Shown here piece after piece: positions 1-20,310 of a DNA stretch of 64,000 bases (the stretch's first letter is position 1; each line of letters begins with the position of its first letter). Origin of the DNA: an uncultured Verrucomicrobiae bacterium (GTDB lineage: Bacteria; Verrucomicrobiota; Verrucomicrobiia; Limisphaerales; UBA11358); assembly GCA_963786375.1 (NCBI GenBank), contig CAWAYP010000008.1, positions 659 to 64,658 on the forward strand, given 5' to 3'. The translations under genes and the position numbers were made by a program. Under the pieces are notes generated by a model. It ran no database searches and was not told where the DNA came from. It saw nothing but the letters and a program-made list of their open reading frames with translations.

Positions 1-1922
1 ACGCCGAGCTGAGCAGCATTACCAATCTATCCGTGCAATTTTCCGCCTACAACGGGAACCATCCTTTGCAGCAAGTTGATTTGTTTGTGGATGGGACGTA
101 TTACTGCACATTGACCAACCCGGTTCCGTGTCCCGGCAATCTATTGACCGTTATCCTGAATGGCTATCCCATCACTTACACAGTCCCCACCAACTCAACC
201 TTAAGCACAATCACAACCGGATTGGCGGCCCTCATCAACACCGACACCAACGCCACACAGGTCAAGGCCTTGAGTCATGGCGACCGTATTGAACTGCAAT
301 CCATCGCCGGCTATTCAACGTTGGCCCCGTTCTATGTCGCGGATAACACTCCCAAAATCCGCCGGGCCTCTCCTACAGCGTCAATTATCTGCCTGATTCA
401 ACCCCGCCGCAGATGCTGCCCGGTCGTCCTGGCACAAGCGGGGCCTTCACGATGGCGGCGGGGCCTTCCAGCGCATTGCCTTATGTAATTTTGGCCTCAA
501 CCAATTAATGGATTGGCTGCCCATCTACACGAACTCGGTGCCGGGGCTACTGAATTTTACCGATTTCGACTCCACGAACTATGCCGCGCGCTTTTATCGC
601 ATGACCTGGCCGGACGCGGATCGCCTACCGAATTGTCCGCGCCACAGTTTGTGGGTTCGGGCACATTCCAGTTGCATGTGGACAGTGTGGCTGGTTTGCC
701 GTGGGCCATCCAAACCTCCCCGGACCTTGTTAATTGGATGTCCATCTTTACCAATCAACTTGGCGGAGCGATGGACTTTGTTGATGGCAACGCGACGAAT
801 GTCGGCGGTGAAGTTTATCGGGTTTGGCATGTGCCGCCGACGCCGCCCGGCTTTACAGTGCTTGATTGACAACTAACCTCACCTTGGCCCGCGTGGACAG
901 TGCCGTGCAGCCTTACGTGGTTGAAGTCTCCACGAACCAAGGCCAATCTACCGTGCTGGCAACCAACTTTAACCTTGCCAATTTTAACCTTGGTGCAATT
1001 CAAACCACTGCCGCCAGTGGATGGAAGTGGAGAAAGTCTCGCAACTTTTCTGCGCGCCAGCCAACCCACCTTGCTGGCCTCGGGAGCGCTCGGTTTCCAG
1101 GAATCTTTGAGGTGCGCAATTCGATTCCCGCCAATTCTTGGATGGAGTTCACTTTTATCAAAACCAACGGCCAGTCTGTGGTCGTGGCCGTCACCAATCG
1201 GTCTTCTGGCAATTCCGTCGCGCTCGCCGCGCAACTGTTCACCTCGATAAACGCGAATTCCGCCTTGCAGGGCAGTGACGGTGTTGAGGCCGAGGATTAT
1301 ATTGTGAGCCAATACGGCACGTTCTTCTTCACCTCCTTTAATCTGTATGCCCGGAGTGCCGGCTACCAGGCTGCTGCAATACAAGCAATCCCCACTGTGT
1401 CGTCCTTCAGAGTTCCCTCGTTCACGTCGGGGGGCAGCACCCTCACCGCGAACCTGTCCGATCTTGAGCCTCGAAACCATCTTTACGTCACAGCCGGCGC
1501 GTCCAGTTTGTCCCTGACTTTCCCCTTGGACACCACAACCCTGCCTGACGGTTATCACACCTTGACGGCGGTCGCCTACGAAGGCAGCAACTGCGGACCG
1601 AAACCCAGGTGACAGTGCCCGTCACGATCCAAAATAGTTCCTTGAGCGCAACGTTGACGCTGCTCGACCTGACCAATCAAGCTCCAGTGCAAGGCACCTA
1701 CCACATCCAGGTTGATGCCAACACCAACACCGTGAGCTTGATCACCTTGTTCAGCAACGGCGGCGCGCTGGGCATGGCCACCAACTCACCCACGGCGGTC
1801 TTCCAGGTGAATGGAGCGGGTTTGGGGCCGGACTGCTCCCTTTCTATGCTCTCGTTCAGACTTCTGACGGACTCGAGTATCGCACGCAAACGCAATGGAT
1901 CCAACTGGGGTCCACGCCGTAG
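1..1922 (+). pseudogene. Frameshifted, window-truncated inverted duplicate of the large secreted protein gene at 15125..18142(-)
   Basis: nt 1-120 read identical to the reverse complement of 16936-17055. ORF pieces 33-488, 513-869, 866-1612 and 1609 onward carry the same peptide (QFSAYNGNHPLQQVDLFVDGTYYC...) in changing frames. The first break is a C4->C3 run difference at 351-353. Confidence 0.85.
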
Positions 1923-2016
1923 CGGGTTGAAACCTGCTTTCCGGGCAACCCGGCGGCGGAAGATTTGCCCGACTTCATCTTCCGCCAGTTTTGCATCGGC
2001 AAATAATGTTGAAGGT

Positions 2017-2321
2017 TCAACTCCACTTCTGGCCCATCCCGTCAATCCCGCTGCGCTTCAAGTCGTCCGGTGTCATCGCGATGCGAAATTCAACATCGGC
2101 CTGAAAGTCAGAAACCAGGGCTCTGCCAATACCGGGATTTTCGAAGTGTCGGGCAAATCCACAATGAGTACGGCCCCTCGCTGGCCGTTTTGCTCGGTGA
2201 AATAAACCGCCTCCGGTTTGATGGTTTCCAGAATTTTGTTCAACTTTGCTCCCACCGAACCGTTTTTGACCGCCGCGTTGAATGGTTGAGGGGGAATTCT
2301 GACATTCATTAACATACGCAT
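2017..2321 (-). pseudogene. Frameshifted copy of the 101-aa conserved hypothetical gene at 14725..15030
   Basis: The first 72 codons of ORF 2073-2321 are identical to the 14725-15030 product. An A4->A3 run difference at 2104-2106 shifts the frame before the C-terminus. Confidence 0.8.
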
Positions 2322-2534
2322 GATGATTCCTTTGGTTGATATTTAAATTAGACTAACTTTCCAAGTCTGACGGTGCAAAATTGAATAGCAAGCTCGAACG
2401 GCGGCGGAAGATTTGGTCATTCCGTTTTAGGTCAATTTGCATGGGGAAATAGTCACGCGAAGGAGACGATTTCGACTTTGTGCCTGGCAGAAAAGGTTTT
2501 CTGAAAAAGCCTTCGTGGCCTGCGCGTGACACTT

Positions 2535-3772
2535 TTACCAAACTTCCACCGGCCCTTTGGGCACGGGAATTTGTTCGCGTTGGTTGACGGCGGGTTCGTC
2601 GCGCATGAAGGACGCGACCATCGGCGGCGGACGGAAGCGCGGCTGCAATTCGCCGTTCTCGTCGAGAAATTGCCGCCGCCAGCGGATGTAGTTTTCCAGA
2701 ACGTCGTGAAATTCCGCGCGCGTGGAAATCTGCACGACGCGTTTGTTGAATTCGTGGCACGGGCCGAACCGCTTGGCATACCACGGCGCGACTTTGCGGA
2801 ACATCCGGCAGCCGAGTTCCTCGCCAAAAACTTCAATCATCAAATCCAGATGCCGGCACATCACGCGCACGCGCTCGGCAAAGGAAGGGTCAGAAGGGAT
2901 ATTCCTGTCTGTGCCGGAAGTTCGTTCAACGCGGTAGCGTCTTGGAGTGCGGCAGTCCTCTGGCACTTTTCGTGTGCGAACCGTCCATTTAAAATCGGCA
3001 GAGGACTGCCGCACTCCAAAATCTGACGGTTGTTCCGCCATTCAGATATTGCAGCGTGCGCTGGAAAATCCACGGATTATAAAATGCGCCGCGCCCGATG
3101 CTCACGCCGGCGCAGCCGGTTTCATCGAGCATTTTCTTCGCGGCCTGCGGCGTGATGATGTCGCCGTTGCCGATGACGGGAATGTGCTTCACGGCTTCGA
3201 CGACTTTGCGGATGCCGGCGAGGTTCACCGTGCCGCCGAAACCCTGTTCGCGCGTCCGGCCATGGACAAAAATGGCCGCGACGCCGGCATCTTCGAGCGC
3301 GCGCGCCAAATCCGGCGCGGTGAGATTTTCGTCGTCCCAGCCGAGCCGCATTTTGGCCGTCACGGGAATTTTCACGGCGTTGACCATGCCGCGGACGAGC
3401 GCGGCGGTTTTGTCGAGTTCGGTCATCATGGCCGAGCCGCCGCCGACGTTGCAGACTTTGCGGACGGGACAGCCCATGTTGATGTCAATGGAATCGACGC
3501 CGCAGTGCTTCGAGCATGAGCGCGGCGTCGCGCATTTCCTCCGGGCACGGAGCCGAAGAGTTGGACGGCCAGCGGCGAATCGGCCGGCCGGGTTTCAATG
3601 AGCTTGAACGCCTTGGGATTTTTTTCCAGCAGCGAGCGGGCGTTGACCAGATCGGTGGTGCAAAGGCCGACGCCGCCGATTTCGCGCACGACCAGGCGGA
3701 AGGGCAGGTTGGTGTAACCCGCCAGCGGCGAGAGAAACAGATTGGATTCGATGTCAGCGAACCGAGGCGCAT
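2535..3772 (-). pseudogene. dusB: tRNA-dihydrouridine synthase, frameshifted duplicate of 13274..14509
   Basis: ORF pieces 3485-3772, 3426-3689, 2989-3477 and 2535-3041 together tile the DusB peptide (MGCPVRKVCNVGGGSAMMTEL..., ...PVPKGPVEVW) in different frames. Confidence 0.85.
2942..3022. repeat. Family C long hairpin repeat (GGAGTGCGGCAGTCCTCTG...CAGAGGACTGCCGCACTCC) inside the left dusB copy
   Basis: Self-complementary arms are read directly. It is homologous to 14025-14105, 53930-54008 and 43801-43858. Confidence 0.8.
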
Positions 3773-3870
3773 GGTTTGATTATAGCAGATTGATTGACAT
3801 TGGCGAGAAAAGCGAATTCGCGCATTGCGGAAGCGAGAACGGCATGTTAGCTTGGCATGCCAAAGTAAAA

Positions 3871-5930
<2,060 letters not shown>

Positions 5931-5939
5931 GATTTTAAG

Positions 5940-6662
5940 TTACTGCGAACCTTCCGGTTCCAGCACCACCCGGAACCCGTAGTCGTTTTTGGTTTTGTCA
6001 GGAGCTGAATACTCACGAAAGGCAATCCGTGCATTGATGTCAATGTACGTGTCCCAGGCGCCGCCGCGCAAAACATGATAGGGTTTGTCCTGCGGATCAA
6101 GGCACCATTCCATGACGTTGCCGCGCGTGTCATAAAGGCCGAGATGGTTCGCCCCCAAACTTCCCACCGGCTCGGTGGAGGAACGGCGTTGCAAATTCAA
6201 GCTCGTCACCGCATCGCTCAGGGAAGCATCGTCCACGAGCTGTTCCCATTGGGCCTGCGTTGGCAAGGTATAGATGTAACCTTTCGGCAATTCTTCAGCC
6301 TTTTGTTCCTTCTCGGTCAGCATTTTGCAGAACGACGTGGCGTCGTTCCAGTTCACGGAGTCCACCGGATGATCTTCGCCTTGAAACGCACTGGGGTTGC
6401 CCGCCATTACTTTTTGATAGGACTTTTGCGTCACTTCATACATGCCGGCCCACAAGGTCGGTGAAATTTTCACCAGCACGATGCCGACGGTGTTGGTCAC
6501 CTGGTCGTTTTGGGCCATCAATTCCTTGAGTGTGGGCGGCGCGTTGGTGTCGCTGTCGGAGGTCGTCGTGTCCTGTGTGTCTTCCTGCGCGTGGCATAAG
6601 GCTGGCAGGGAAGACAGCAAAGCCATGGTCAAAAGTGCGATAATTCTCCGGTTTATTTTCAT
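5940..6662 (-). CDS. Secreted formylglycine-generating-enzyme (FGE/SUMF1)-type sulfatase-modifying-domain protein
   Basis: Intact ORF with signal peptide MKINRRIIALLTMALLSSLPALCHA and FGE-type motifs (HPVDSVNWNDATSFC, GNVMEWCLD, RVLRGGAW, YGFRVV). The ATG at 6662 is preferred over the ORF-track start at 6710. Confidence 0.75.
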   Translation of the reverse strand: MKINRRIIALLTMALLSSLPALCHAQEDTQDTTTSDSDTNAPPTLKELMAQNDQVTNTVGIVLVKISPTLWAGMYEVTQKSYQKVMAGNPSAFQGEDHPVDSVNWNDATSFCKMLTEKEQKAEELPKGYIYTLPTQAQWEQLVDDASLSDAVTSLNLQRRSSTEPVGSLGANHLGLYDTRGNVMEWCLDPQDKPYHVLRGGAWDTYIDINARIAFREYSAPDKTKNDYGFRVVLEPEGSQ

Positions 6663-6716
6663 AACGCAAACAAGCTTGTGGTTGGCAATCAAGGTCACAT
6701 AGCAAGCCACGTGCCG

Positions 6717-7241
6717 TTACGGGGAGTTTTCAGGGGGCTTCAAGTCCTCCGCCAAAAAACGGGCCACGTCCTTGAACCAGGCGGCGTTATCGGGATTCAC
6801 GGCCATAAGCGACTGATGGGCTTCCAGACAGGTGCGTGTGATTTCTCCGCGGGTCGGATTCGTGGAATTCGGTGTTTGCGTTTGGACATCATCAGGCAAC
6901 TGCAACGTCCCGCTGATTACTTTGAAAAGATGCAACACCCCCAGATTTTCAAGCAGGTCCGTGATGCGCGGGCTGGGATTCAGCAATTCAATCTCGCGTT
7001 TGTCCGGCGCGGTGGACTGATTCAGCTTCAATCCGAACCCGGCCAGGATGCCGAGAAACGTGCTGTCCATGAGCGCGCATTCGGACAGGTCAATGATGAG
7101 ATGGCCGTAACCCTTCTGTGCCAGTTCGGTCAGCAGCATTTTGAAATCGGGGCCGTACGTGAAATTGGCACGGCCCATGATTTTCACGCAGGCGAAACGC
7201 TCGCATGCCATTACCAGTATTTTTGCCGCCGAAGTTGCCAT
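6717..7241 (-). CDS. STAS-domain protein (anti-sigma-factor antagonist-like)
   Basis: Intact 174-aa ORF. The segment GHLIIDLSECALMDSTFLGILAGF followed by NPSPRITDLLENLGVLHLF is typical of SpoIIAA/STAS folds. Confidence 0.6.
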   Translation of the reverse strand: MATSAAKILVMACERFACVKIMGRANFTYGPDFKMLLTELAQKGYGHLIIDLSECALMDSTFLGILAGFGLKLNQSTAPDKREIELLNPSPRITDLLENLGVLHLFKVISGTLQLPDDVQTQTPNSTNPTRGEITRTCLEAHQSLMAVNPDNAAWFKDVARFLAEDLKPPENSP

Positions 7242-7258
7242 ATTTTAAATTCTTCCTT

Positions 7259-8403
7259 TTACGCGGCGGCGGCCTGCGGCGTGACGATTTGCACCAGGGT
7301 TTGCTGCAGGACCAACGTCTCGTCGAGGCCGCTGGACACCAGCCGCTGGTTGCAGCGCAGCAACAAATCCATCGCCCGGATCAATTCGGCCTCGGTATAA
7401 CGTTTCACCTGCGGCAGCGCTTTGAAAAGCACATACGGATTCAGTGCCAGCGGATTGAAACGGCGGTCGCCGGGCAGCTGGTCCGCCGGGACGCGCTCGA
7501 AGTTGCCCCTTGAAACGGTTGTAATCCGTCTCCGGCTTGATCCAGCCTTCGCGCAGCATTTCCTTCAACAACAGCATCGCGCGGACTTTGGCGATCAAAC
7601 CATAGAGCAGGCCGATTTCGGATTTCTTGCGAATCGAACTTTACCTCCCACAATTCCTCGTCCAGCCGCCGCAGCAAACGGGGCAAATCGCGGTCGCCCA
7701 GGGCGTCGCCGAGCGCAAAGGCCCGCGCCGTCTTGTTCCGGACGCAAACCGCATTGACGTCACCGGCCTCGATTTCTTTCGGTCGCCCGCGAACAAAGGC
7801 GAGTTTCTCAATTTCATTGTCGAGCTGGCGCGCGATTGGGTCCCACGCGGCTGACCAGTTCCGCCAGGGCTTCCTCGGAAATTTCCTTCTTGCGCTCGCG
7901 CACGGCTGTTCGCGCCGCAACTTCCGCGCGCTCCGCCCAGTCGCGGTCGTCGACCGACCAGCCGGCAAGGCTTTCGACCGAACCGATTTTGTCGAGCGTC
8001 TTGAAAAACGTTTTGCGTTTGTCCACCTTGCCCGCGCTGATCAAAAGCCGGATGCCGCTGTTGCCGACCACGCGAACGCCTTCAATTCCTCCGCCAGACT
8101 CGGCCAGCGATTCGGTGACCGCCTGGGCGGACGCCACCCGCTCCTCGCCGAGAAAATTGCAATCGCGCAGCCAGATGACCTTGCCCGTGCCGAAAAACGG
8201 CAGGGTTTGCAATGCTTCGCGCAAGACGGGCAATGGCGGCGAGGGCTTCGCCACTGTTGGAAACGGTGGCCTCGATGATTTCGTGATCCATGCCCCCGAT
8301 TTCCTCGCACCATTGCTGGTAGAGTTGTCTGGGCGCGCTGCTTGATGGCGAACTCGTCGTCACCACAAATGAGAGCCAGTGATGGGGTTTCGGCGGCGGG
8401 CAT
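7259..8403 (-). pseudogene. holA: DNA polymerase III delta subunit, frameshifted
   Basis: HolA-like peptide pieces (LALICGDDEFAIKQRA, LREALQTLPFFGTGKVIWLRDCNFL, KVDKRKTFFKTLDKIG, ARAFALGDALGDRDLPRLLRRLDEEL, IAKVRAMLLLKEMLREGW, ..LQQTLVQIV) lie in ORFs 8041-8403, 8082-8366, 7814-8254, 7441-7968 and 7245-7598, in shifting frames. Confidence 0.7.
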
Positions 8404-8404
8404 T

Positions 8405-8488
8405 TTATTCAGCCTCGCTGCCGGTTTCGTTGATCCGGTTCAGCACTTCGCTCATGTCCTCGACCTGCTCAAAGAGGGAGGCGGCCAC
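8405..8488 (-). pseudogene. 3'-terminal remnant (about 27 codons) of a bifunctional-nuclease (BFN/DUF151)-like gene, cut at the palindrome centre
   Basis: The reverse complement reads VAASLFEQVEDMSEVLNRINETGSEAE*. This parallels the tail of the right-arm copy (NALFEQVEDMSEILERINENGGETE*). Confidence 0.5.
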
Positions 8489-8489
8489 A

Positions 8490-8646
8490 AAAATCGTCGA
8501 GATTGACGCGCGCCCCAGCGATTGCCTGGCCCTGGCCACCGCGCAGAAAACGCCCCATTTACGTCACCAACGCGCTCTTCGAACAAGTCGAGGACATGAG
8601 CGAAATCCTCGAGCGAATCAATGAAAACGGCGGCGAGACCGAATAG
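8490..8646 (+). pseudogene. 5'-truncated, frameshifted bifunctional-nuclease (BFN/DUF151)-like gene fragment
   Basis: It reads KIVEIDARPSDCLALA, then after a frame change PIYVTNALFEQVEDMSEILERINENGGETE*. DaRPSDaiALA..aPIyV is the C-terminal signature I associate with BFN domains. Confidence 0.5.
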
Positions 8647-8649
8647 GAA

Positions 8650-9794
8650 ATGGCCCCATCTGCCGCAAGCAGTCTGCCCCGTGGTGCTGGTCTGCGGTGA
8701 GGATGAGTTTGCCGTCAAGCAGCGAGCCAAAGAGATTATACCGCAGTGGACGCGAGGAACTGGGCGGCATGGACCACGAAATCATCGATGCCGGCGTCTC
8801 CAACAGCGGCGAAGCCCTCAAGACCTGCGCCGACTGCGCGAGGCGCTCCAGACCCTGCCCTTCTTCGGCACCGCCAAGGCCATCTGGCTCCAGAACTGCA
8901 ATTTCCTCGGAGACGAACGAGTCGCCCTGGCGCCAGGATGTCACCGAATCCCTCGCCTACCTGGCGCAGGAACTCAAGGAGTTCTCCTGGCAAAACGTCC
9001 GCCTGCTCATCAGCGCCGGAAGGTGGACAAGCGCAAGGTTTTCTACAAAACGCTCGACAAGCTCGGCACCGTCGAGAATCTTCGCCGCGATGGTCCGTGG
9101 ATGACCGGGATTGGGCGAACCAGGCGGAAGCCTGGGCGCGCAAGGCGTTGCGCGCCCGCCAAAAGGAGATTTCCGACGAGGCCCTGGCCGAACTGGTCAA
9201 CCGGGTCGGCCCGAACGCCCGCCAACTGGACAACGAAGTCGAGAAGCTCGCGCCTCTACGTCGGCGACCGGCCAGGAAATCGAAATGGCGGACGTGGCGG
9301 CCGTTTGCACCCGGAACAAGACGGCGCGGGCCTTTGCCCTGGGCGATGCCCTGGGAGACCGGGACCTGCCGCGTCTGCTGCGGTGCCTGGACGAGGAGTT
9401 GTGGGAGGTAAAGCTCGATCCGCAGAAATCGGAAATCGGCCTGCTCTACGGCCTGATTGCCAAAGTGCGCGCGATGATCCTGCTGAAGGAGATGCTGCGC
9501 GAAGGCTGGATCAAGCCGAGAGGCGGATTACAACCGTTTCAAGGCCCAACTGGAGCGCGTCCCGGCGGAGCAGTTGCCCGCAAGACCGCCGTTTCAACCC
9601 GCTGGCGCTCAATCCTTATGTGCTTTTCAAAGCCCTGCCGCAAGTCAAGCGATACAGCGCAGGCCGAATTGATTCGGCGCGATGGAACTCCTGCTGCAGT
9701 GCAACCAGCGCCTGGTGTCCAGCGGCCTGGACGAATCGCTGGTGTTGCAGCAAGCACTGGTGCAGATTGTGGCGCCGCGGCGGCCGCCGCGTAA
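8650..9794 (+). pseudogene. holA: DNA polymerase III delta subunit, frameshifted (right-arm copy)
   Basis: HolA pieces (VVLVCGEDEFAVKQRAKEI, LREALQTLPFFGTAKAIWLQNCNFLGDERVA, KVDKRKVFYKTLDKLGTVENL, ISDEALAELVNRVGPNARQLDNEVEKLA, ARAFALGDALGDRDLPRLLRCLDEELWEV, MELLLQCNQRLVSSGLDESL) alternate among the frames of ORFs 8621-9799, 8697-9104, 8746-9411, 9111-9794 and 9682-9918. Confidence 0.7.
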
Positions 9795-9808
9795 GTTGAA
9801 AAGCAACC

Positions 9809-10332
9809 ATGGCGCGTCCCCGGCCAAAATCTCGGTCTGGCGGCGGGCACTTCGCCTGCGTCAGAATCACCGGCCGGGCCAATTTCACGTCCGGCCCCGA
9901 TTTCAAGACCCTCCTTGACGAACTGGCGCAAAGGGGCTACGGGCATCTCGTCCTCGACCTCTCCGAATGCACGCTCATGGACAGCACGTTTCTGGGCGTC
10001 CTGGCCGGATTCGGATTGAAGCTGAATCCAGTCCGCCGCGCCGGACAAACGCGAGATTGAATTGCTGAATCCCAGCCCGCGCATCACGGACCTGCTTGAA
10101 AATCTGGGGGTGTTGCATCTTTTCAAAGTAATCAGCGGGACGTTGCAGTTGCCTGATGATGTCCAAACGCAAACACCGAATTCCACGAATCCGACCCGCG
10201 GAGAAATCACGCGCACCTGTCTGGAAGCCCATCAGTCGCTTATGGCCGATGAATCCCGATAACGTCGCCTGGTTCAAGGACGTGGCCCGATTTTTCGCGG
10301 AGGACTTGAAGCCCCCTGAAAACTCCCCGTAA
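9809..10332 (+). pseudogene. STAS-domain protein, frameshifted duplicate of 6717..7241
   Basis: ORFs 9809-10060 and 10062-10262 plus a third frame reproduce the STAS peptide. One break is an extra C (aatccag versus aatcag) near 10026. The 3' half is identical in peptide to the left copy. Confidence 0.8.
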
Positions 10333-10388
10333 CGGCACGTGGCTTGCTATGTGACCTTGAATTGCCAACCACAGGCTTTGTTTGCGTT

Positions 10389-11115
10389 ATGAAAATAAAC
10401 CGGAAAGTTTCGCGTTTTTGGCCATGGCTGTGATGTTGTCCCTGCCGGCCTTTTGGCTCGCGCGCAGGAAGACACACAGGACACGACGACCTCCGACAGC
10501 GACACCAACGCGCCGCCCACACTCAAGGAATTGATGGCCCAAAACGACCAGGTGACCAACACCGTCGGCATCGTGCTGGTGAAAATCTCACCCGGACTTT
10601 GGGCCGGAAAATTTGAAGTGACGCAGGACGCCTATCAAAAGTTGATGCACTCCAATCCCAGCGCATTTCGCGGCGATGACAGGCCGGTGGATTCGGTGAG
10701 CTGGAACGACGCGATGGCGTTTTGCGGGAATGCTGACCAAAAGGAAAAAAAGGCTGAAGAATTGCCCGACGGTTATGTCTATTCGCTCCCGACGCAGGAT
10801 CAATGGTTCATGCTCATGGACGATGCTACCCTCGACCATGCCGTGATGAGCCTGAACCTCCAGCGCCACGTTCCTCAACCGAGCCGGTCGGCAGTCTGGG
10901 GGCGAACCAGCCTCGGCCTTTATGACACGCGCGGCAATGTCATGGAATGGTGCCTTGATCCGCAGGACAAACCTTATCGCGTTTTGCGCGGCGGCGCATG
11001 GGACACGTTCATTGACATCAATGCCCGGATTGAATTTCGTGATTACTCGCTCCGGACAAAACCAAAAACGACTACGGGTTCCGGGTGGTGCTGGAACCGG
11101 CAAGGTTCGCAGTAA
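10389..11115 (+). pseudogene. FGE/SUMF1-type domain protein, frameshifted and diverged duplicate of 5940..6662
   Basis: ATG at 10389 (MKINRK..) hits a stop after 14 codons. ORF 10453-11115 resumes with AQEDTQDTTTSDSDTNAPPTLKELMAQNDQVTNTVGIVLVKISP, identical to the left copy. The core is diverged and the C-terminus is out of frame (..KPKTTTGSGWCWNRQGSQ). Confidence 0.8.
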
Positions 11116-11312
11116 CTTAAAATCTCAAACCGGCGCGGGCGCCGGAGTGCCAAGACCGGGCAATTTCGGCGGCACGGGTTTGGGCGGTGTTTCAGGCAGG
11201 GGCGTGCCTGCCGGCGCGCCCATGATATTCCACTTTCGGCTTGGGCGGCGGCGGCGTGAATTTGCCGGTTTTGACAATTTCCTCGACTTGCGCCCGATCA
11301 AGCGTTTCGTGT

Positions 11313-12965
11313 TCAAGCAGCGCGCTGGCAATCAATTCCAGCTTGTCGCGGTTGGTCAAAATAATATTCTTGCGCCCGCTTGTAGCCATCATCAATGAGG
11401 CGCTTGATCTCCTCGTCAATTTCCCGCGCCGTGCTTTCGCTGTAAACCTTCGTGCGCGCCATTTCACGGCCGAGGAAAACAAACTCATCGTCACTGCCGT
11501 ATTGCACCATGCCGACCTTGTCACTCATGCCATACTGGCAAACCATTGCGCGCGCCAGATTCGTCGCCTGTTGGATGTCCATGGCCGCGCCCGTTGAAAT
11601 ATCGCCCGAAACAATTTCCTCGGCGATGCGCCCGGCCATGGTCACGGCGAGGTCGTCAAACATTTCCTTGCGCCGCCGGTTCAAAATATCCTTTTCCGGC
11701 AACTGCATGGTTGAGCCCAGCGACTGCCCGCGCGGAATGATCGTGACCTTGTGCAGGGGATGCGTGTGTTCCAGCAACACGTTCACCAGCGCGTGGCCGG
11801 CTTCGTGCCAGGCGGTGCATTTTTTCTCCTCGTCGGTCATCGCGAGGCTGCGGCGCTCGCGGCCCCAGCGGACCTTGTCGCGCGCCTCCTCCAGTTCTTC
11901 CATGCCGACGGATTTTTTATTAGTCCGCGCGGCGAGCAGGGCGGCTTCATTCAACAAATTCGCCAGCTCCGCGCCGGAATAACCCGGCGTGCCGCGCGCG
12001 ATGATGGACAAGTCCGCCTCCGGCGCGAGTTTTACGTTCTTGGCGTGGACTTTCAAAATTGCCTCGCGCCCGCGCACGTCCGGCAGATTGACCACCACCT
12101 GCCGGTCGAAACGGCCCGGACGCAACAGGGCCGGGTCGAGCACGTCCGGCCGGTTGGTCGCGGCGATGATGATGATGCCTTCCTGCGTGTCAAAGCCGTC
12201 CATCTCGACGAGCAACGCATTGAGGGTTTGTTCGCGCTCGTCATTGCCGCCGCCGAGGCCGTGCCCGCGCGAACGGCCGACCGCGTCAATTTCGTCAATA
12301 AAAACCAGGCACGGCGTGTTGCGGCGCGCCTGTTCGAACATATCGCGCACGCGGCTGGCGCCGACGCCCACGAACATTTCCACGAAATCCGAACCGCTGA
12401 TGCTGAAAAACGCCGCGTCCGCCTCGCCGGCGATGGCCTTGGCCAGCAGTGTTTTGCCCGTGCCGGGCGCGCCCACCATCAGGACGCCCTTCGGAATTCG
12501 TCCGCCTAGCTTTTGAAATTTCTTCGGGTCCTTCAAAAACTCCACCAGCTCGGAAACCTCTTCGATGGCTTCCTCGACTCCGGCCACCTCTTTAAACGTT
12601 GTTTTGTTCCGGTCCTTCGCCAGCATCCGGGCCTTGCTTTTGCCAAAACTCAGCGCGCCCTTCCCGGCGATTTTGATCTGCCGGATGAAGAAAAACCAAA
12701 ACAAAAGGGCGATCAACACAAACGGCGCGACACTCCAAAGCACACTCATCAACATCGTGTTGGGCTGGCTCGCGCTGATCTTGTCCGAGGCGAACAATTG
12801 GTCCTCCTTGTCCTGGCTGAGATAGGCGTTTTTGACCACAAACGGCACCTCCACCGGCTGGCCGTTTTGTTTGACAATATTTCCATCCTTGTCGGTCTGG
12901 TAATATGAACCGTTGATCTCCGTCAGGGGAGCCGTCTGCGGATTAAAACTGACCGTCGCCTGCAC
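11313..12965 (-). CDS. ftsH: ATP-dependent zinc metalloprotease FtsH (core ORF; the full locus 11125..13173 needs three +/-1 frame corrections)
   Basis: Motifs present: Walker [14 protein letters not shown], Walker [16 protein letters not shown], zinc site [11 protein letters not shown]2 [12 protein letters not shown]1 lies in ORF 12943-13173. The conserved C-terminal helix ([23 protein letters not shown]) and Pro-rich tail lie in ORFs 11192-11524 and 11125-11331. Confidence 0.85.
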
Positions 12966-13273
12966 GATCTGGCTGGCGGAACTTTTTGAAAAACTCGGCT
13001 TGAGACAGGGTGCCCACCTGCGTCGCCATGTGGTCGCGCAGCAGCATCAACGCCACAATGCTGCCAATGATGGCAATCCACGCCACCCACGTTGTCGGCG
13101 GCAATTTGAATCCACCCGCCGGCTTTTTGGGGCCACGATCGTTTTCTTTATTATTTTGATTCTCGTCGAACATTTTTACTTTGGCATGTCAAGCTAACAT
13201 GCCGTTCTGGCTTCCGCAATGCGGGAATTCGCTTTTCTCGCCAATGTCAAAATCAATCTGCTATAATCAAATC

Positions 13274-14509
13274 ATGCGCCTTGGCTTGTTGACGGTGCCG
13301 TCCAATCTGTTTCTGTCGCCGCTGGCGGGTTACACCAACCTGCCTTTCCGGCTCGTCGTGCGCGAAATCGGCGGCGTCGGCCTTTGCACCACCGATCTGG
13401 TCAACGCCCGCTCGCTCCTCGAAAAAAATCCGAGGGCATTCAAGCTCATCGAAACCCGGCCGGCCGATTCGCCGCTGGCCGTCCAGCTTTTCGGGTCCGT
13501 CCCGGAGGAAATGCGCGACGCCGCACTCCTGCTTGAAGCACAGGGTGTCGCCGCCATTGACATCAACATGGGCTGTCCCGTCCGCAAAGTCTGCAACGTC
13601 GGCGGTGGCTCGGCCATGATGACCGAACTGGCCAAAACCGCCGCGCTTGTCCGCGGCATGGTCAGCGCCGTGAAAATTCCAGTGACGGCCAAGATGCGGC
13701 TCGGCTGGGACGACGAAAATTTGACCGCGCCGGATTTGGCGCGTGCGCTCGAAGACGCCGGCATCGCGGCAATCTTTGTTCACGGGCGGACGCGCGAACA
13801 GGGTTTCAGCGGCACGGTGAACCTCGCCGGCATCCGCAAAGTCGTCGAAGCCGTGAAGCACATTCCCATCATCGGCAACGGCGACATCATCACGCCGCCG
13901 GCCGCAAAGAAAATGTTCGATGAAACCGGCTGCGCCGGCGTGAGCATCGGCCGTGGTGCTTTCTATAATCCGTGGATTTTCCAGCACACGCTGGAATACC
14001 TGAATGGCGCGAACAACCGTCAGATTTTGGAGTGCGGCAGTCCTCTGCCGCTTTTAAATGGGCGGTGCGCACACGAAAAGCGCCAGAGGACTGCCGCACT
14101 CCAAGACGCTACCGCGTTGAACGAAGCTTCCGGCACAGACAGGAATATCCCTTCTGACCCTTCCTTTGCCGAACGTGTGCGCGTGATGTGCCGGCATCTG
14201 GACTTGATGATTGAAGTTTTTGGCGAGGAACTCGGCTGCCGGATGTTTCGCAAGGTCGCGCCGTGGTATGCCAGGCGTTTCGGCCCGTGCCACGAATTCA
14301 ACAAACGCGCCGTGCAGATTTCCACTCGCGCGGAATTTCAAGATGTTCTGGAAAACTACATCCGCTGGCGCAGGCAATTTCTCGACGAGAACGGCGAATT
14401 GCAGCCGCGCTTCCGTCCGCCACCGATGGTTGCGTCCTTCATGCGCGCGCCGGCGGCAACAACGCGCGAACAAATTCCCGTGCCCAAAGGGCCGGTGGAA
14501 GTTTGGTAA
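13274..14509 (+). CDS. dusB: tRNA-dihydrouridine synthase B carrying an in-frame hairpin-repeat insert
   Basis: Intact ORF from MRLGLLTVPSNLFLSPLAGYTNLPFR, with INMGCPVRKV and IGRGAFYNPWIF. The ATG at 13274 is preferred over the track start at 13181. Confidence 0.85.
   Translation: MRLGLLTVPSNLFLSPLAGYTNLPFRLVVREIGGVGLCTTDLVNARSLLEKNPRAFKLIETRPADSPLAVQLFGSVPEEMRDAALLLEAQGVAAIDINMGCPVRKVCNVGGGSAMMTELAKTAALVRGMVSAVKIPVTAKMRLGWDDENLTAPDLARALEDAGIAAIFVHGRTREQGFSGTVNLAGIRKVVEAVKHIPIIGNGDIITPPAAKKMFDETGCAGVSIGRGAFYNPWIFQHTLEYLNGANNRQILECGSPLPLLNGRCAHEKRQRTAALQDATALNEASGTDRNIPSDPSFAERVRVMCRHLDLMIEVFGEELGCRMFRKVAPWYARRFGPCHEFNKRAVQISTRAEFQDVLENYIRWRRQFLDENGELQPRFRPPPMVASFMRAPAATTREQIPVPKGPVEVW
14025..14105. 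repeat. Family C long hairpin repeat translated in frame within dusB (..ILECGSPLPLLNGRCAHEKRQRTAALQD..)
   Basis: ggagtgcggcagtcctctgccgc ... gcgccagaggactgccgcactcc form roughly 20-nt complementary arms. The same element occurs intergenically at 53930-54008. Confidence 0.85.
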
Positions 14510-14724
14510 AAGTGTCACGCGCAGGCCACGAAGGCTTTTTCAGAAAACCTTTTCTGCCAGGCACAAAGTCGAAATCGTCTCCTTCGCGTGACTATTTCCC
14601 CATGCAAATTGACCGAAAACGGAGTTGAGCAAATCTTCCGCCGCCGTTCGGAGCTTGCTATTCAATTTTGCACCGTCAGACTTGGAAAGTTAGTCTAATT
14701 TAAATATCAACCAAAGGAATCATC

Positions 14725-15030
14725 ATGCGTATGTTAATGAATGTCAGAATTCCCCCTCAACCATTCAACGCGGCGGTCAAAAACGGTTCGGTGGGAGCAA
14801 AGTTGAACAAAATTCTGGAAACCATCAAACCGGAGGCGGTTTATTTCACCGAGCAAAACGGCCAGCGAGGGGCCGTACTCATTGTGGATTTGCCCGACAC
14901 TTCGAAAATCCCGGTATTGGCAGAGCCCTGGTTTCTGACTTTTCAGGCCGATGTTGAATTTCGCATCGCGATGACACCGGACGACTTGAAGCGCAGCGGG
15001 ATTGACGGGATGGGCCAGAAGTGGAGTTGA
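14725..15030 (+). CDS. Small conserved hypothetical protein (101 aa)
   Basis: Intact ORF MRMLMNVRIPPQPFNAAVKNG...; no family is recognised with confidence. Confidence 0.55.
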   Translation: MRMLMNVRIPPQPFNAAVKNGSVGAKLNKILETIKPEAVYFTEQNGQRGAVLIVDLPDTSKIPVLAEPWFLTFQADVEFRIAMTPDDLKRSGIDGMGQKWS

Positions 15031-15124
15031 ACCTTCAACATTATTTGCCGATGCAAAACTGGCGGAAGATGAAGTCGGGCAAATCTTCCGCCGCCGGGTT
15101 GCCCGGAAAGCAGGTTTCAACCCG

Positions 15125-18100
15125 CTACGGCGTGGACCCCAGTTGGATCCATTGCGTTTGCGTGCGATACTCGAGTCCGTCAGAAGTCTGAACGAGAGCA
15201 TAGAAAGGGAGCAGTCCGGCCCCTAAACCCGCTCCATTCACCTGGAAGACCGCCGTGGGTGAGTTGGTGGCCATGCCCAGCGCGCCGCCGTTGCTGAACA
15301 AGGTGATCAAGCTCACGGTGTTGGTGTTGGCATCAACCTGGATGTGGTAGGTGCCTTGCACTGGAGCTTGATTGGTCAGGTCGAGCAGCGTCAACGTTGC
15401 GCTCAAGGAACTATTTTGGATCGTGACGGGCACTGTCACCTGGGTTTCGGTCCGCACGTTGCTGCCTTCGTAGGCGACCGCCGTCAAGGTGTGATAACCG
15501 TCAGGCAGGGTTGTGGTGTCCAAGGGGAAAGTCAGGGACAAACTGGACGCGCCGGCTGTGACGTAAAGATGGTTTCGAGGCTCAAGATCGGACAGGTTCG
15601 CGGTGAGGGTGCTGCCCCCCGACGTGAACAAGGGAACTCTGAAGGACGACACAGTGGGGATTGCTTGTATTGCAGCAGCCTGGTAGCCGGCACTCCGGGC
15701 ATACAGATTAAAGGAGGTGAAGAAGAACGTGCCGTATTGGCTCACAATATAATCCTCGGCCTCAACACCGTCACTGCCCTGCAAGGCGGAATTCGCGTTT
15801 ATCGAGGTGAACAGTTGCGCGGCGAGCGCGACGGAATTGCCAGAAGACTGATTGGTGACGGCCACGACCACAGACTGGCCGTTGGTTTTGATAAAAGTGA
15901 ACTCCATCCAAGAATTGGCGGGAATCGAATTGCTAAGCTCCAAGTATTCCTGGAAACCGAGCGCTCCCGAGGCCAGCAAGGTGGGTTGGCTGGCGCGCAG
16001 AAAAGTTGTGAGACTTTCTCCACTTCCAATCGCACTGGCGGCAGTGGTTTGAATTGCACCAAGGTTAAAATTGGCAAGGTTAAAGTTGGTTGCCAGCACG
16101 GTAGATTGGCCTTGGTTCGTGGAGACTTCAACCACGTAAGGCTGCACGGCACTGTCCACGCGGACCAAGGTGAGGTTGGTCGTCACATCAAGCACTGTAA
16201 AGCCGGGCGGCGTCGGCGGCACATGCCAAACCCGATAAAATTCACCGCCGACATTCGTCGCGTTGCCATCAACAAAGTCCATCGCTCCGCCAAGTTGATT
16301 GGTAAAGATGGACATCCAATTAACAAGGTCCGGGGAGGTTTGGATGGCCCACGGCAAACCAGCCACACTGTCCACATGCAACTGGAATGTGCCCGAACCC
16401 ACAAACTGTGGCGCGGACAATTCGGTAGGCTGATCCGCGTCCGGCCAGGTCATGCGATAAAAGCGCGCGGGATAGTTCGTGGAGTCGAAATCGGTAAAAT
16501 TCAGCAGCCCCGGCACCGAGTTCGTGTAGATGGGCAGCCAATCCATTAAATTGGTTGAGGCCAAAATTACATAAGGCAATGCGCTGGGAATCCCCGCCGC
16601 CATCGTGAAGGCCCCGCTTGTGCCAGGACGACCGGGCAGCATCTGCGGCGGGGTTGAATCAGGCAGATAATTGACGCTGTAGGAGAGGCCCGGCGCATTT
16701 TGGGGAGTGTTATCCGCGACATAGAACGGGGCCAACGTTGAATAGCCGGCGATGGATTGCAGTTCAATACGGTCGCCATGACTCAAGGCCTTGACCTGTG
16801 TGGCGTTGGTGTCGGTGTTGATGAGGGCCGCCAATCCGGTTGTGATTGTGCTTAAGGTTGAGTTGGTGGGGACTGTGTAAGTGATGGGATAGCCATTCAG
16901 GATAACGGTCAATAGATTGCCGGGACACGGAACCGGGTTGGTCAATGTGCAGTAATACGTCCCATCCACAAACAAATCAACTTGCTGCAAAGGATGGTTC
17001 CCGTTGTAGGCGGAAAATTGCACGGATAGATTGGTAATGCTGCTCAGCTCGGCGTTGACGAGGTTGGTATCCCATTCTCCGTCACCCACCCGGGCAAAGG
17101 GCGCGGCCAGGGGTTCACCCACAATCAACCCAAGATACGGCGCATTGATGCTCTGATAATAGCTCTCGGCCAGACTGAAGCCGCGGGCCTGATAAAAATA
17201 ATCCTGGGGGTTGGGAAACTTCTGCGTGTCGTCTTCAGGCTCCACCACCGTGCCATAACTGCCGGCCGCGCCGGCATTGATGAAGGCCAGCAAGTTCGTC
17301 TGGCTGTTGGCGCCGAAAATGATGCCGCCGTAGGATGTCATACTGTCCGCAATGGCACCCGGAACAAAAGTGCTTTGCGGGACGCTGAATTGCGCCAGAC
17401 CCGTTTCATAGCCCAAGCAGCCGTTTGGCCACAAGACGGAATCGGTGTTGGTGCGCAGAATTGAGGAAACCCCCAGAATATTCACGTTGAAAATGGCATT
17501 GTCGAAAAACGGATAACGGATGTTCCGGAGTGTGTCGGAGCTTTTGGCCAAGACCACCGGTTGTTGGGGACGGGTCCCATCGCTTTCAACTCCCTGATCC
17601 ACCAATGCTTCCGCCTGGGCCAGTGAATCAGCCGTGATCATGGTGGTGAGAAAGGAATAGCCGGGCGCGCCGACGGGTGTCGCCTGGCGGAATACCGCTT
17701 CGCTGGCGGCATAACTGTTGGTGACACCCAATGGATCGCTCCCGTCACCCTGTCTGGAGCCATAGAACAAAGCCGAGGTCGTGCCGTTGACCACGGAGCC
17801 AAAGCTGGTCTGGAACGGGATATCCATCGAGAGAACAACGTAATCAATCTGGTTAGTCAACTGGCGGGCCGCCAGCATGTTCAACAAGGGCATTACCAGA
17901 TTGGTTTGAAGATCATTGCTGGCCCACAATGTGTTGCCGCCCGCCCAGTTGATGTATAACACATTTTGAGGCGGCACTTGGCGCTGTTCACAGAAGTAAT
18001 TGCCCAGTTCACATGAATTTGAACTGGCCTGGTTGATGACGACAACCGTGTTCAAGCCGCTGCCGCCAGCCTGTAGCCTGAATGCCAGGACACAATTCAA

Positions 18101-18142
18101 CAGAACCAGCGCCAGCATTCTTCGATGACGACTGCCGCTCAT
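15125..18142 (-). CDS. Large secreted protein of unknown function (about 1005 aa), beta-rich repetitive C-terminal half
   Basis: Long intact ORF. The ATG at 18142 gives a signal-like N-terminus MSGSRHRRMLALVLLNCVLAFRLQA and avoids overlap with the upstream gene. The ORF-track start at 18451 is unlikely. Confidence 0.75.
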   Translation of the reverse strand: MSGSRHRRMLALVLLNCVLAFRLQAGGSGLNTVVVINQASSNSCELGNYFCEQRQVPPQNVLYINWAGGNTLWASNDLQTNLVMPLLNMLAARQLTNQIDYVVLSMDIPFQTSFGSVVNGTTSALFYGSRQGDGSDPLGVTNSYAASEAVFRQATPVGAPGYSFLTTMITADSLAQAEALVDQGVESDGTRPQQPVVLAKSSDTLRNIRYPFFDNAIFNVNILGVSSILRTNTDSVLWPNGCLGYETGLAQFSVPQSTFVPGAIADSMTSYGGIIFGANSQTNLLAFINAGAAGSYGTVVEPEDDTQKFPNPQDYFYQARGFSLAESYYQSINAPYLGLIVGEPLAAPFARVGDGEWDTNLVNAELSSITNLSVQFSAYNGNHPLQQVDLFVDGTYYCTLTNPVPCPGNLLTVILNGYPITYTVPTNSTLSTITTGLAALINTDTNATQVKALSHGDRIELQSIAGYSTLAPFYVADNTPQNAPGLSYSVNYLPDSTPPQMLPGRPGTSGAFTMAAGIPSALPYVILASTNLMDWLPIYTNSVPGLLNFTDFDSTNYPARFYRMTWPDADQPTELSAPQFVGSGTFQLHVDSVAGLPWAIQTSPDLVNWMSIFTNQLGGAMDFVDGNATNVGGEFYRVWHVPPTPPGFTVLDVTTNLTLVRVDSAVQPYVVEVSTNQGQSTVLATNFNLANFNLGAIQTTAASAIGSGESLTTFLRASQPTLLASGALGFQEYLELSNSIPANSWMEFTFIKTNGQSVVVAVTNQSSGNSVALAAQLFTSINANSALQGSDGVEAEDYIVSQYGTFFFTSFNLYARSAGYQAAAIQAIPTVSSFRVPLFTSGGSTLTANLSDLEPRNHLYVTAGASSLSLTFPLDTTTLPDGYHTLTAVAYEGSNVRTETQVTVPVTIQNSSLSATLTLLDLTNQAPVQGTYHIQVDANTNTVSLITLFSNGGALGMATNSPTAVFQVNGAGLGAGLLPFYALVQTSDGLEYRTQTQWIQLGSTP

Positions 18143-18221
18143 AGGCTTAACCTGACATAACCAGGGGGACGTGCCTGCTGCCGGAGGGTTGTGACAACAT
18201 AAACAATCTTTTACTGATGTC

Positions 18222-18255
18222 TGCAAAGAAAACAAGCCGGTCATTGACCGGCTTG
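18222..18255 (-). terminator. Rho-independent terminator after the PEP-CTERM gene 18289..19179
   Basis: Hairpin caagccggtca-t-tgaccggcttg (18233-18255), followed on the minus strand by a T-rich run. Confidence 0.55.
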
Positions 18256-18288
18256 CTTCTGCTATTTTTACCAGAGATATTCCGGCCG

Positions 18289-19179
18289 TCAGGATGTCTG
18301 ACGGCTCCGCGCTAATCCCAAGGCACCCAAGCCCAGCGCGATTAAAGCCATGGTGGTCGGTTCCGGAACAGTCATAACTTTCAAGCCTTTGTCTTTGCTT
18401 ATGTCCTCCTCGTCGCCTGGGTTTAGCGTTGCGTCCCATTGGAACGCCCACGACACATCGCCAGTAACCGCCGAGGTATTGTCGCTGAGGTTGAAATTTA
18501 GACTAGCCGGGTTATTGAGTTCGTTCAGCGTTGTGGGGACCAGCGCAGCTTCGGCGTAGTTTGCGTTCGGTGATTCAATGACTTCAGCAATTCCCGTCCC
18601 GCCCGGCCCGCCAGTCGTTTGGAAGGCTGAGGTATACGCACCAGGATTGCCGGAAATGCTCACAGTATTGTTGTTGTTCTGCAGCAAATTGAAATTGGAA
18701 TATTGGTAGAAGTTCAAATCCACAATTTGATCGGAATAGTTATCGATCCATATGTACTCCATCATATCGGCAGATCCAGAGTTGGCGCCGTTACCGTGCA
18801 AAACGTAATCAACATTCACTTGCACTCCATTGGCTGCTCCATAGGTCACGGTAAGGTTATTGGGCCCGTTGTAGGAAGTGCTCAACTCGCCAAGTTGATC
18901 AATGGACAGCGGAGCGCTACCGTTGATTGAATACCAAAACCATTGTTGGTCCAACTGGCTCTGAGAAACGCCCCCCACAGTCCAGCTGTTCATCCCGATG
19001 CTGCCAGTGCCGCCAGAGCCGGCGCCTAGATTCAGTGTCGCCGCAGACCCTCCGTCACTAAGCGGGAAATTTTGAGCCATGCCCTTGCCTGGCAAAAGCA
19101 AAACTCCTGTCCCGACCAATGCGGCACACAGGAACGCGACGGCTCTACTTTTTAAATAAATTTCACGATGTGCTTTCAT
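18289..19179 (-). CDS. PEP-CTERM sorting-domain secreted protein
   Basis: Signal peptide plus C-terminal VPEPTTMALIALGLGALGLARSRQTS (the PEP motif, a TM helix and a basic tail). Confidence 0.8.
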   Translation of the reverse strand: MKAHREIYLKSRAVAFLCAALVGTGVLLLPGKGMAQNFPLSDGGSAATLNLGAGSGGTGSIGMNSWTVGGVSQSQLDQQWFWYSINGSAPLSIDQLGELSTSYNGPNNLTVTYGAANGVQVNVDYVLHGNGANSGSADMMEYIWIDNYSDQIVDLNFYQYSNFNLLQNNNNTVSISGNPGAYTSAFQTTGGPGGTGIAEVIESPNANYAEAALVPTTLNELNNPASLNFNLSDNTSAVTGDVSWAFQWDATLNPGDEEDISKDKGLKVMTVPEPTTMALIALGLGALGLARSRQTS

Positions 19180-19256: not shown

Positions 19257-20117
19257 TTAGTTTCTTCGTCGCCTGCACACCAGGGCCACGGCCAACATTC
19301 CCGCCGAAACCAACGCCACGGACGAAGGTTCAGGCACCGTGATTGTTTGTGTTTGACTGATTGTAAATGAGCTGCCCCCCTGCAGGCCTGTCACATCCCA
19401 TTCATAGGCAAAAACCGCGTTCCCCGAAGCAGTGAGGGTTATGTCGTTAAGCGGATTGGGAGACCCATTCAATGGCCCAAATGGAGCCCCACCGTTGTCC
19501 GCCTGCATTTCGGTCGTAGCTCCTCCAATTGGTTGCAATAAATCTTGAAGCGACGCCCCTCCCCCGGTCTGATAGGCTTGGTATTGGGAAGGGTTGCTGA
19601 GAATGGACATTTGTACATTCTGGCTTCCCGAAACGTTTCCCAAGACAAAATCCGAGTATTGATAGAAAATTATGTTTGCGCTGCTGCTGGGATCATTGTT
19701 GTTGTTGATGTATATCGTAGGGGTCAAAGAATATGTATTGCCAGAAATACCTAGAACATAGTTGAAATTAGCCGTGAATCCTGAACCCAAATTATACCAG
19801 ACATTTAACTGATTATAGGATGACCCTACTCTTGACACGGCTTCTGAAGTAAACATGGAGCTATTTAACTCAGTTACTCCAGAACCCAAATTAAAATAAA
19901 ACGTTTCTTGGCTCAATTGATCCACGCCACTCACCGTCCAATAGTCCAACCCGGCATTGGGGTCGAACCCCAAATTGGAAATGTGGCCGCTGAGGCTTTT
20001 GGTAATGTTTGTAACCTGCGCCTCGCTTTGAACGACAAAGCCGGCGAGTAAAAACGCAAATAGAGCACCTTGAAACAACCGCGCCCTGCTTACGAATGAT
20101 TTCTTCAAAATCTTCAT
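19257..20117 (-). CDS. PEP-CTERM sorting-domain secreted protein (paralog-like neighbour)
   Basis: C-terminal VPEPSSVALVSAGMLAVALVCRRRRN. The likely start MKILKKSF is at 20117. Confidence 0.8.
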   Translation of the reverse strand: MKILKKSFVSRARLFQGALFAFLLAGFVVQSEAQVTNITKSLSGHISNLGFDPNAGLDYWTVSGVDQLSQETFYFNLGSGVTELNSSMFTSEAVSRVGSSYNQLNVWYNLGSGFTANFNYVLGISGNTYSLTPTIYINNNNDPSSSANIIFYQYSDFVLGNVSGSQNVQMSILSNPSQYQAYQTGGGASLQDLLQPIGGATTEMQADNGGAPFGPLNGSPNPLNDITLTASGNAVFAYEWDVTGLQGGSSFTISQTQTITVPEPSSVALVSAGMLAVALVCRRRRN

Positions 20118-20310
20118 AGCTTCGCTTGGTATTCTGGTAACCTGCATCCGTTATAGGCTATCCAAGTCAAAAGTCAAGACATTTATTGTCACGAAATGAT
20201 GCAAAAAAGGGATGGTGACTGGCCTTCCTAAGAGGTTCAAAGTCAACGGCTGGCCACAATTCCAAGGCCAGCCGGCCTTTGCATGGCCAATCACGCGAGG
20301 CCAGTGGCCG

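Follow-up and report, generated by a model that had tools for sequence, protein, structure and literature searches.

Organization of the locus

The window analysed here, a stretch of 64 kb from an uncultured Verrucomicrobiae bacterium, opens with a gene cluster that is present twice in opposite orientation. According to the Pfam-based annotation, the right arm carries holA (weak match), STAS, an FGE-sulfatase-like gene (FGE), ftsH on the minus strand, dus, an ORF of 101 aa (p101) and a large ORF (big), followed by two PEP-CTERM genes. The left arm (1–8496, minus strand) contains the inverted series holA-STAS-FGE-ftsH-dus-p101-big, the last gene only in part, and corresponds to positions 8136–16627 of the reference record L082 with an identity of 95.6%. 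In a self-alignment, positions 1–17055 behave as one imperfect palindrome which matches its own reverse complement over the full length with 90.6% identity; the 43 inverted pairs reported by the repeat finder are merely a split of this single structure. The identity between the arms drops from ca. 100% in the outer 2.5 kb to ca. 72% near the centre and is patchy in between, and the centre of the self-alignment (its last bin) is not palindromic. At window position 1 the left arm is still 100% identical to the right arm, i.e. it leaves the window there.

The turning point of the palindrome is located at 8489–8555, about 90–150 nt upstream of holA, where the left arm breaks off (reference position 8136) and the right arm sets in (reference position 8071). 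The fold-back junction itself (8489–8496) consists of the 8 nt AAAAATCG, with which the left arm ends (reference 8143–8136, minus strand) and the right arm begins (reference 8071–8078). Base-level alignments place these 8 nt, as a short inverted repeat with a loop of 57 nt, within the 3′ end of the BFN-domain gene of the reference. The unpaired centre or “loop” (8497–8554, plus strand; reference ~8079–8135) is present as a single copy in right-arm orientation, and reference position 8136 is reached again at window position 8555 on the right arm. A stable hairpin was not found at the junction, the reference stretch being unremarkable (z = −1.66). With its 8-nt stem and 57-nt loop, the junction has the anatomy of snap-back priming. 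Overlap-based assemblers do not merge sequences on 8 nt, and the junction thus suggests a chimera that existed physically, as a molecule or read, rather than an overlap join made by the assembler.

The single-copy reference locus

The reference is provided by independent assemblies of the same Verrucomicrobiia strain (records L081/L087 and L082/L086), and all indel counts given below were measured against L082. The locus is single and lacks an inverted copy both in NCBI GCA_049686435.1 (JBAVIA010000148.1, 35 kb) and in ENA ERZ25039529 (contig_10664, 504 kb, locus at 423,992–448,072), two records which are only 2 nt apart in 20.7 kb. The gene order is metH-KTSC-BFN-holA (379 aa)-STAS (164 aa)-FGE (228 aa)-ftsH (682 aa, minus strand)-dus (411 aa)-p101 (101 aa)-big-PEP-CTERM, and all genes are intact. 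Between ~13.2 kb and position 24,509 the window deviates from the reference by two substitutions, and between 11.4 and 13.2 kb by 13 substitutions and one 1-nt insertion. The near-identity over ~13–24.5 kb, with 0–1 differences in the comparison with L081/L087 and L082/L086, indicates that the window and the reference assemblies derive from the same strain. In the reference, holA is preceded by BFN, KTSC and metH, and the genes upstream of the hinge are found nowhere in the 64-kb window.

The series holA-STAS-(FGE)-ftsH-dus-(p101)-big is also native and single-copy in 12 more distant Verrucomicrobiota genomes. A scan of GTDB genomes revealed no close relative and served for synteny and as a source of outgroups. 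The protein encoded by the left-arm FGE gene was found by protein search to be 100% identical to P0001 (NCBI MGB7769269.1) of a Verrucomicrobiia MAG, and this version of the gene is present on five independent contigs, among them the two reference contigs named above. Two side observations concern holA. Its start is called differently in same-strain records of nearly identical DNA (L082, 8340–9368, 342 aa; L081, 8229–9368, 379 aa), the 379-aa call being the one of orthologue length, and the holA-STAS pair is conserved in 72 of 80 related Verrucomicrobiota loci (L001–L080).

Distribution of clean and altered stretches

Compared with the reference, both arms are composed of reference-identical stretches which alternate with altered ones. 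The outer left arm (1–2416, minus strand), with p101 and part of big, differs little from the reference, by 17 substitutions with a dN/dS of ~1 and by 12 deletions of one base each; it has the character of an unpolished consensus, with plain noise superimposed on the sequence of the strain itself. It is followed by an altered part (2417–6026, minus strand) covering ftsH′ and dus′, with ~260 substitutions, mostly at third codon positions, and ~35 indel runs. The adjacent clean island (6027–7497, minus strand) comprises the 3′-terminal 240 nt of holA, STAS, FGE and the spacers, and differs from the reference by 4 substitutions in 1470 nt and by no indel. The agreement includes synonymous and intergenic sites, the two spacers being devoid of substitutions, and the short contigs L084 and L085 match the island at 99.4–99.5% without gaps. 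The longest indel-free run of the left arm extends over 1819 nt (window 7497–5679). The innermost left arm (7498–8496, minus strand) with the 5′ part of holA and the 3′ end of the BFN gene is again mostly reference-like (30 substitutions) but contains 11 one-base indels, by which the left-arm holA is broken.

At the level of genes, the preliminary description of this DNA had noted that FGE and STAS of the left arm are uninterrupted amidst fragmented neighbours, and the comparison with L082 bears out both parts of this statement. FGE (ORF 5940–6710, true gene 5940–6626, 228 aa) and STAS (ORF 6717–7241, true gene 6717–7211, 164 aa) are each free of indel bases and align to their orthologues in one frame, whereas left-arm holA and ftsH carry 11 and 29 indel bases, dus 10, p101 one and big 9; holA, ftsH, dus and p101 are frame-split in tblastn alignments.

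In the right arm, the altered part comes first (8489 to ~11380, plus strand) and spans the 3′ end of the BFN gene, holA′, STAS′, FGE′ and the 3′ end of ftsH; it shows 64 indel runs and ~390 substitutions, the majority of them at third codon positions. From 11381 to at least 24509 (plus strand), the right arm and the unique DNA that follows are clean; this stretch comprises the rest of ftsH, dus, p101, big and what lies beyond, and shows few substitutions and one stray additional C at ~12977. The indel bases per gene amount to 43 in holA, 5 in STAS, 17 in FGE and 4 in ftsH, and to none in dus, p101 and big. The right-arm copies of STAS and FGE are hence frameshifted, as had been described, and require two or three frames relative to their orthologues; likewise, the earlier statement that dus, p101 and big are intact only on the right was found to be correct. 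The ORF at 8621–9799 (plus strand, 392 aa) looks like an intact holA but lies mostly off the true frame, the HolA homology being spread over three frames. The wrong frame stays open because of the high G+C content, and ORF length alone is therefore misleading in this window. Four 1-nt indels leave right-arm ftsH with 550 of its 682 aa; relatives have 678–685 aa.

The additional C at ~12977 (plus strand; GGCTGG-C-GGAAC) sits in an otherwise reference-identical stretch and removes the first ~65 codons of right-arm ftsH. An indel at the corresponding reference position, 12549, is present in the left arm as well, and mixed reads may have confused the consensus at this site. Right-arm FGE′ is represented by an ORF at 10453–11115 (plus strand, 220 aa), the translation of which is deposited as P0092 and forms its own singleton cluster (NCBI, ENA). 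Among 15 billion proteins it occurs on one contig only, a contig of 93,806 nt which is evidently that of the window itself; P0092 is an artefactual, frameshift-derived protein entry.

The two arms complement each other, one tending to be clean where the other is altered. Each arm deviates by ~4% from the reference and by ~9.5% from the other arm, the difference densities of the arms are anticorrelated (Spearman −0.56, p = 0.001) and only 28 of ~700 substituted sites are common to both. The indel runs (55 on the left, about 64–65 on the right) cluster almost exclusively in the complementary altered stretches. An association of the indels with homopolymers was not detected, the mean adjacent run measuring 2.25–2.29 compared with 2.17 at random positions. 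The clean arm changes near the boundary between FGE and ftsH (reference ~10,650–10,950). As to the reciprocal retention of genes postulated earlier, it holds for STAS, FGE, dus, p101 and big but not for holA and ftsH, which are broken in both arms so that the full protein is encoded by neither.

Nature of the altered sequence

The substitutions in the altered stretches accumulate at third codon positions, the counts for positions 1/2/3 being 54/31/135 in holA′, 30/22/116 in ftsH′, 16/12/55 in dus′ and 21/17/48 in FGE′. Accordingly, the dN/dS values between the arms are low (holA 0.15, FGE 0.28, ftsH 0.11, dus 0.14, STAS 0.31), and the comparison of intact and broken copies gives no indication of relaxed constraint, the broken copies showing strong purifying selection. 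At sites where the altered arm and the reference differ, outgroup genomes more often share the base of the altered arm. Moreover, when the indels are projected out, the altered genes are free of stop codons and as similar to their orthologues as the reference proteins. The third-position bias, the outgroup alleles and the stop-free frames together show that the substitutions stem from functional orthologues of related organisms and not from decayed pseudogenes. The same three features led us to reject the idea that the arms represent two noisy passes of one molecule.

The indels require a different explanation. In the altered stretches they occur at a frequency of ~1 per 40–100 nt and at a ratio to substitutions of ~1:6, which does not agree with neutral decay in view of the codon-position bias. 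Indels of evolutionary origin would imply a long phase of neutral decay, which this bias contradicts, and those of the altered stretches are best read as consensus errors of low-coverage long-read data.

The source of the altered haplotype was sought in public data. Protein searches gave no close match, the best hits reaching 83% (reconstructed holA′) and 90% (ftsH′), and an exact 26-mer of FGE′ had no match in JGI metagenome contigs. The dS values are heterogeneous between adjacent genes, ranging from ~0 (big) over 0.15–0.33 up to 0.76 (holA), and indicate that no single coherent second genome underlies the altered sequence. This heterogeneity, combined with the lack of close matches to holA′, ftsH′ and the FGE′ 26-mer in these searches, led to the rejection of a coherent second genome “B” as the source. 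The altered haplotype may originate from an unsampled relative or, more likely, from a blended consensus. Public metagenomes contain thousands of HolA and FtsH relatives at ~80% identity; the clade is extremely diverse, which makes cross-mapping of related reads plausible.

Origin of the palindrome

On the basis of these data, we consider it very likely that the genome contains no duplication here and that the 17-kb palindrome arose when a metagenome contig built from long reads was misassembled by fold-back, probably at its end. The reciprocal pattern is real in the sequence but is an assembly artefact and not biology. Of the two explanations offered earlier for the intact 1.3 kb, locally different consensus quality is thus the one that agrees with the data, reference-identical stretches alternating with altered ones in a complementary manner between the arms.

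Starting from the palindrome and its junction, the single-copy reference locus, the map of clean and altered stretches and the nature of their substitutions and indels, all of which are directly observed, we infer a chimeric read and a step of read placement or graph traversal. A chimeric fold-back molecule or read would have turned at the 8-nt inverted repeat and run back over the same locus on the opposite strand, and the assembler would have extended the contig with this read. Fold-back reads account for ~0.55–0.6% of ONT genomic DNA reads (PMC12870357) and whole-genome amplification frequently yields palindromic chimeras (PMC6218980 / 10.1101/173872). With the locus now present twice in the draft, reads of the abundant strain might accumulate on just one arm at each place and polish that arm to the true sequence. 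The other arm would be left at draft level or be “polished” by cross-mapping reads of related, rare Verrucomicrobiota, and the losing arm might thereby acquire real orthologous differences together with many random indels. An equivalent route would be a path through the assembly graph that uses each branch of a strain bubble once only. Randomly placed multi-mapping reads would polish both arms equally, and the complementarity therefore needs either winner-takes-all mapping or such a once-per-branch graph path. The switch of the winning arm near the FGE/ftsH boundary would explain on which side each gene appears intact, the left for STAS and FGE, the right for dus, p101 and big. Near the hinge and at the switch, both arms retain some altered positions, which accounts for the damage to holA and ftsH in both.

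As an alternative, a break followed by snap-back at the short inverted repeat might have produced the palindrome in vivo, in a related strain or in a sub-population of low abundance; the mosaic seen in the arms would be a consensus artefact in this case as well. The 8-nt stem and 57-nt loop of the junction are what snap-back priming should produce, and in-vivo palindromes initiated at short inverted repeats are known (Tanaka et al. 2002, as cited in PMC12870357). However, an identical junction anatomy also arises in vitro during end repair or amplification, and fold-back reads are a documented ONT artefact that affects ~0.5% of reads (PMC12870357). Furthermore, a replacement of everything upstream of holA entails the loss of metH and its neighbours unless the palindrome forms a linear end, and the structure is not found in the independent assemblies. 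We consequently regard an in-vivo origin as improbable. The same applies, to a slightly stronger degree, to its more specific form. Here snap-back would have created a real palindrome, with arms of more than 8.5 kb each, in an infrequent cell lineage of a Verrucomicrobiia population from soil or sediment; one long read would have captured it, and the mosaic would again be artefactual.

A genuine inverted duplication, the copies of which decay differentially under selection for one working copy per gene, had been the other explanation offered initially. It would conform to the complementary, non-random arrangement of clean and altered stretches and to the presence of intact STAS and FGE only on the left and of intact dus, p101 and big only on the right. 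The evidence as a whole nevertheless makes it very unlikely. holA is normally a single-copy, essential gene, and neither arm contains an intact copy of it or of ftsH. The island equals the reference also at synonymous and intergenic sites, which are beyond the reach of selection on protein function. Broken copies with dN/dS values of 0.11–0.31, stop-free once their indels are disregarded, do not fit pseudogenes that have suffered one indel per 40–100 nt, and a divergence of ~0 in the fast-evolving big is difficult to reconcile with a dS of 0.76 in holA. Finally, the duplication is missing from the independent same-strain assemblies, which contain the locus in single copy. Selection for one working copy per gene is accordingly abandoned.

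That the 1.3 kb without frameshifts arose by chance, as a gap left by sequencing errors placed at random, as might be argued from the facts that few events make long gaps and that ~20 frame changes seen by tblastn lead to an expected longest gap near 1.1 kb, can be dismissed on the exact indel map against the reference, for which, with 55 left-arm events placed uniformly over 8.5 kb, the probability of a longest gap of at least 1819 nt is 1.4 × 10−4 (1 × 10−5 for the degraded inner left arm only), and in which the substitutions vanish together with the indels, a uniform spread of the 308 left-arm substitutions predicting ~53 in the 1470-nt island and only 4 being observed, in accordance with the earlier judgement that such a stretch is unlikely by chance.

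Comparison with known systems

Fold-back misassembly relates the window to chimeric ONT reads and palindromic contig ends; as in these, the structure takes the place of the true upstream sequence, and independent assemblies are devoid of it. It differs from them in that the arms do not represent one molecule read twice with noise but show orthologue-like substitutions. A further consensus step fed by different read populations is therefore needed beyond the ONT fold-back. In palindromic chimeras generated by MDA, the displaced strand primes itself and gives rise to artificial palindromic long reads (Pacasus paper, PMC6218980 / 10.1101/173872). The junction of the window, a short inverted repeat with a small loop, fits this self-priming mechanism; there is, however, no sign that the sample of the window was amplified.

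Strain or haplotype switching in metagenome assemblies likewise produces dominant-strain stretches that alternate with alleles of related populations, and low-coverage stretches that retain indel errors. In the window, by contrast, the switching is reciprocal between two copies in one contig and becomes visible only through the fold-back. Genuine large palindromes with arm-to-arm gene conversion resemble the structure in their inverted arms, the short asymmetric centre and the junction at a short inverted repeat. Of real palindromes, one would not expect essential genes to be frameshifted on both arms, and the window further deviates from them in that its divergence is like that of orthologues in some genes but nil in the gene that evolves fastest, and in that the structure is absent from same-strain assemblies.

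Consequences and additional observations

About 11 kb of the deposited MAG contig (93.8 kb, NCBI and ENA) have to be considered untrustworthy, namely the false inverted copy, which accounts for 8.5 kb, and another 2.9 kb in which the sequence is degraded. The artefact generates spurious ORFs, including the 392-aa “holA” ORF and the FGE-like P0092 of 220 aa in protein databases, and makes holA and ftsH look pseudogenic although the real genes of the organism are intact. Fold-back and mixed-population consensus in combination can thus mimic a “reciprocal gene retention”, and a codon-position bias between the arms is no proof of a real duplication. The case is mainly of value as a warning and offers no biological novelty.

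Beside these results, a 41-nt direct repeat was found in three copies (14606–14646, 15056–15096 and 20326–20366, plus strand) which are 78–80% identical and end with ...CAAATCTTCCGCCGCCG. They are located near gene ends around p101, big and mnmE, and may reflect a chance match or a shared short motif. The two PEP-CTERM genes (18289–19179 and 19257–20147, minus strand) encode adjacent proteins of 296 aa which are distant paralogues with 31% identity over 249 aa. The pair adjoins the large ORF at 15125–18451, which is devoid of Pfam domains and corresponds to 997–1005 aa in the reference gene calls.
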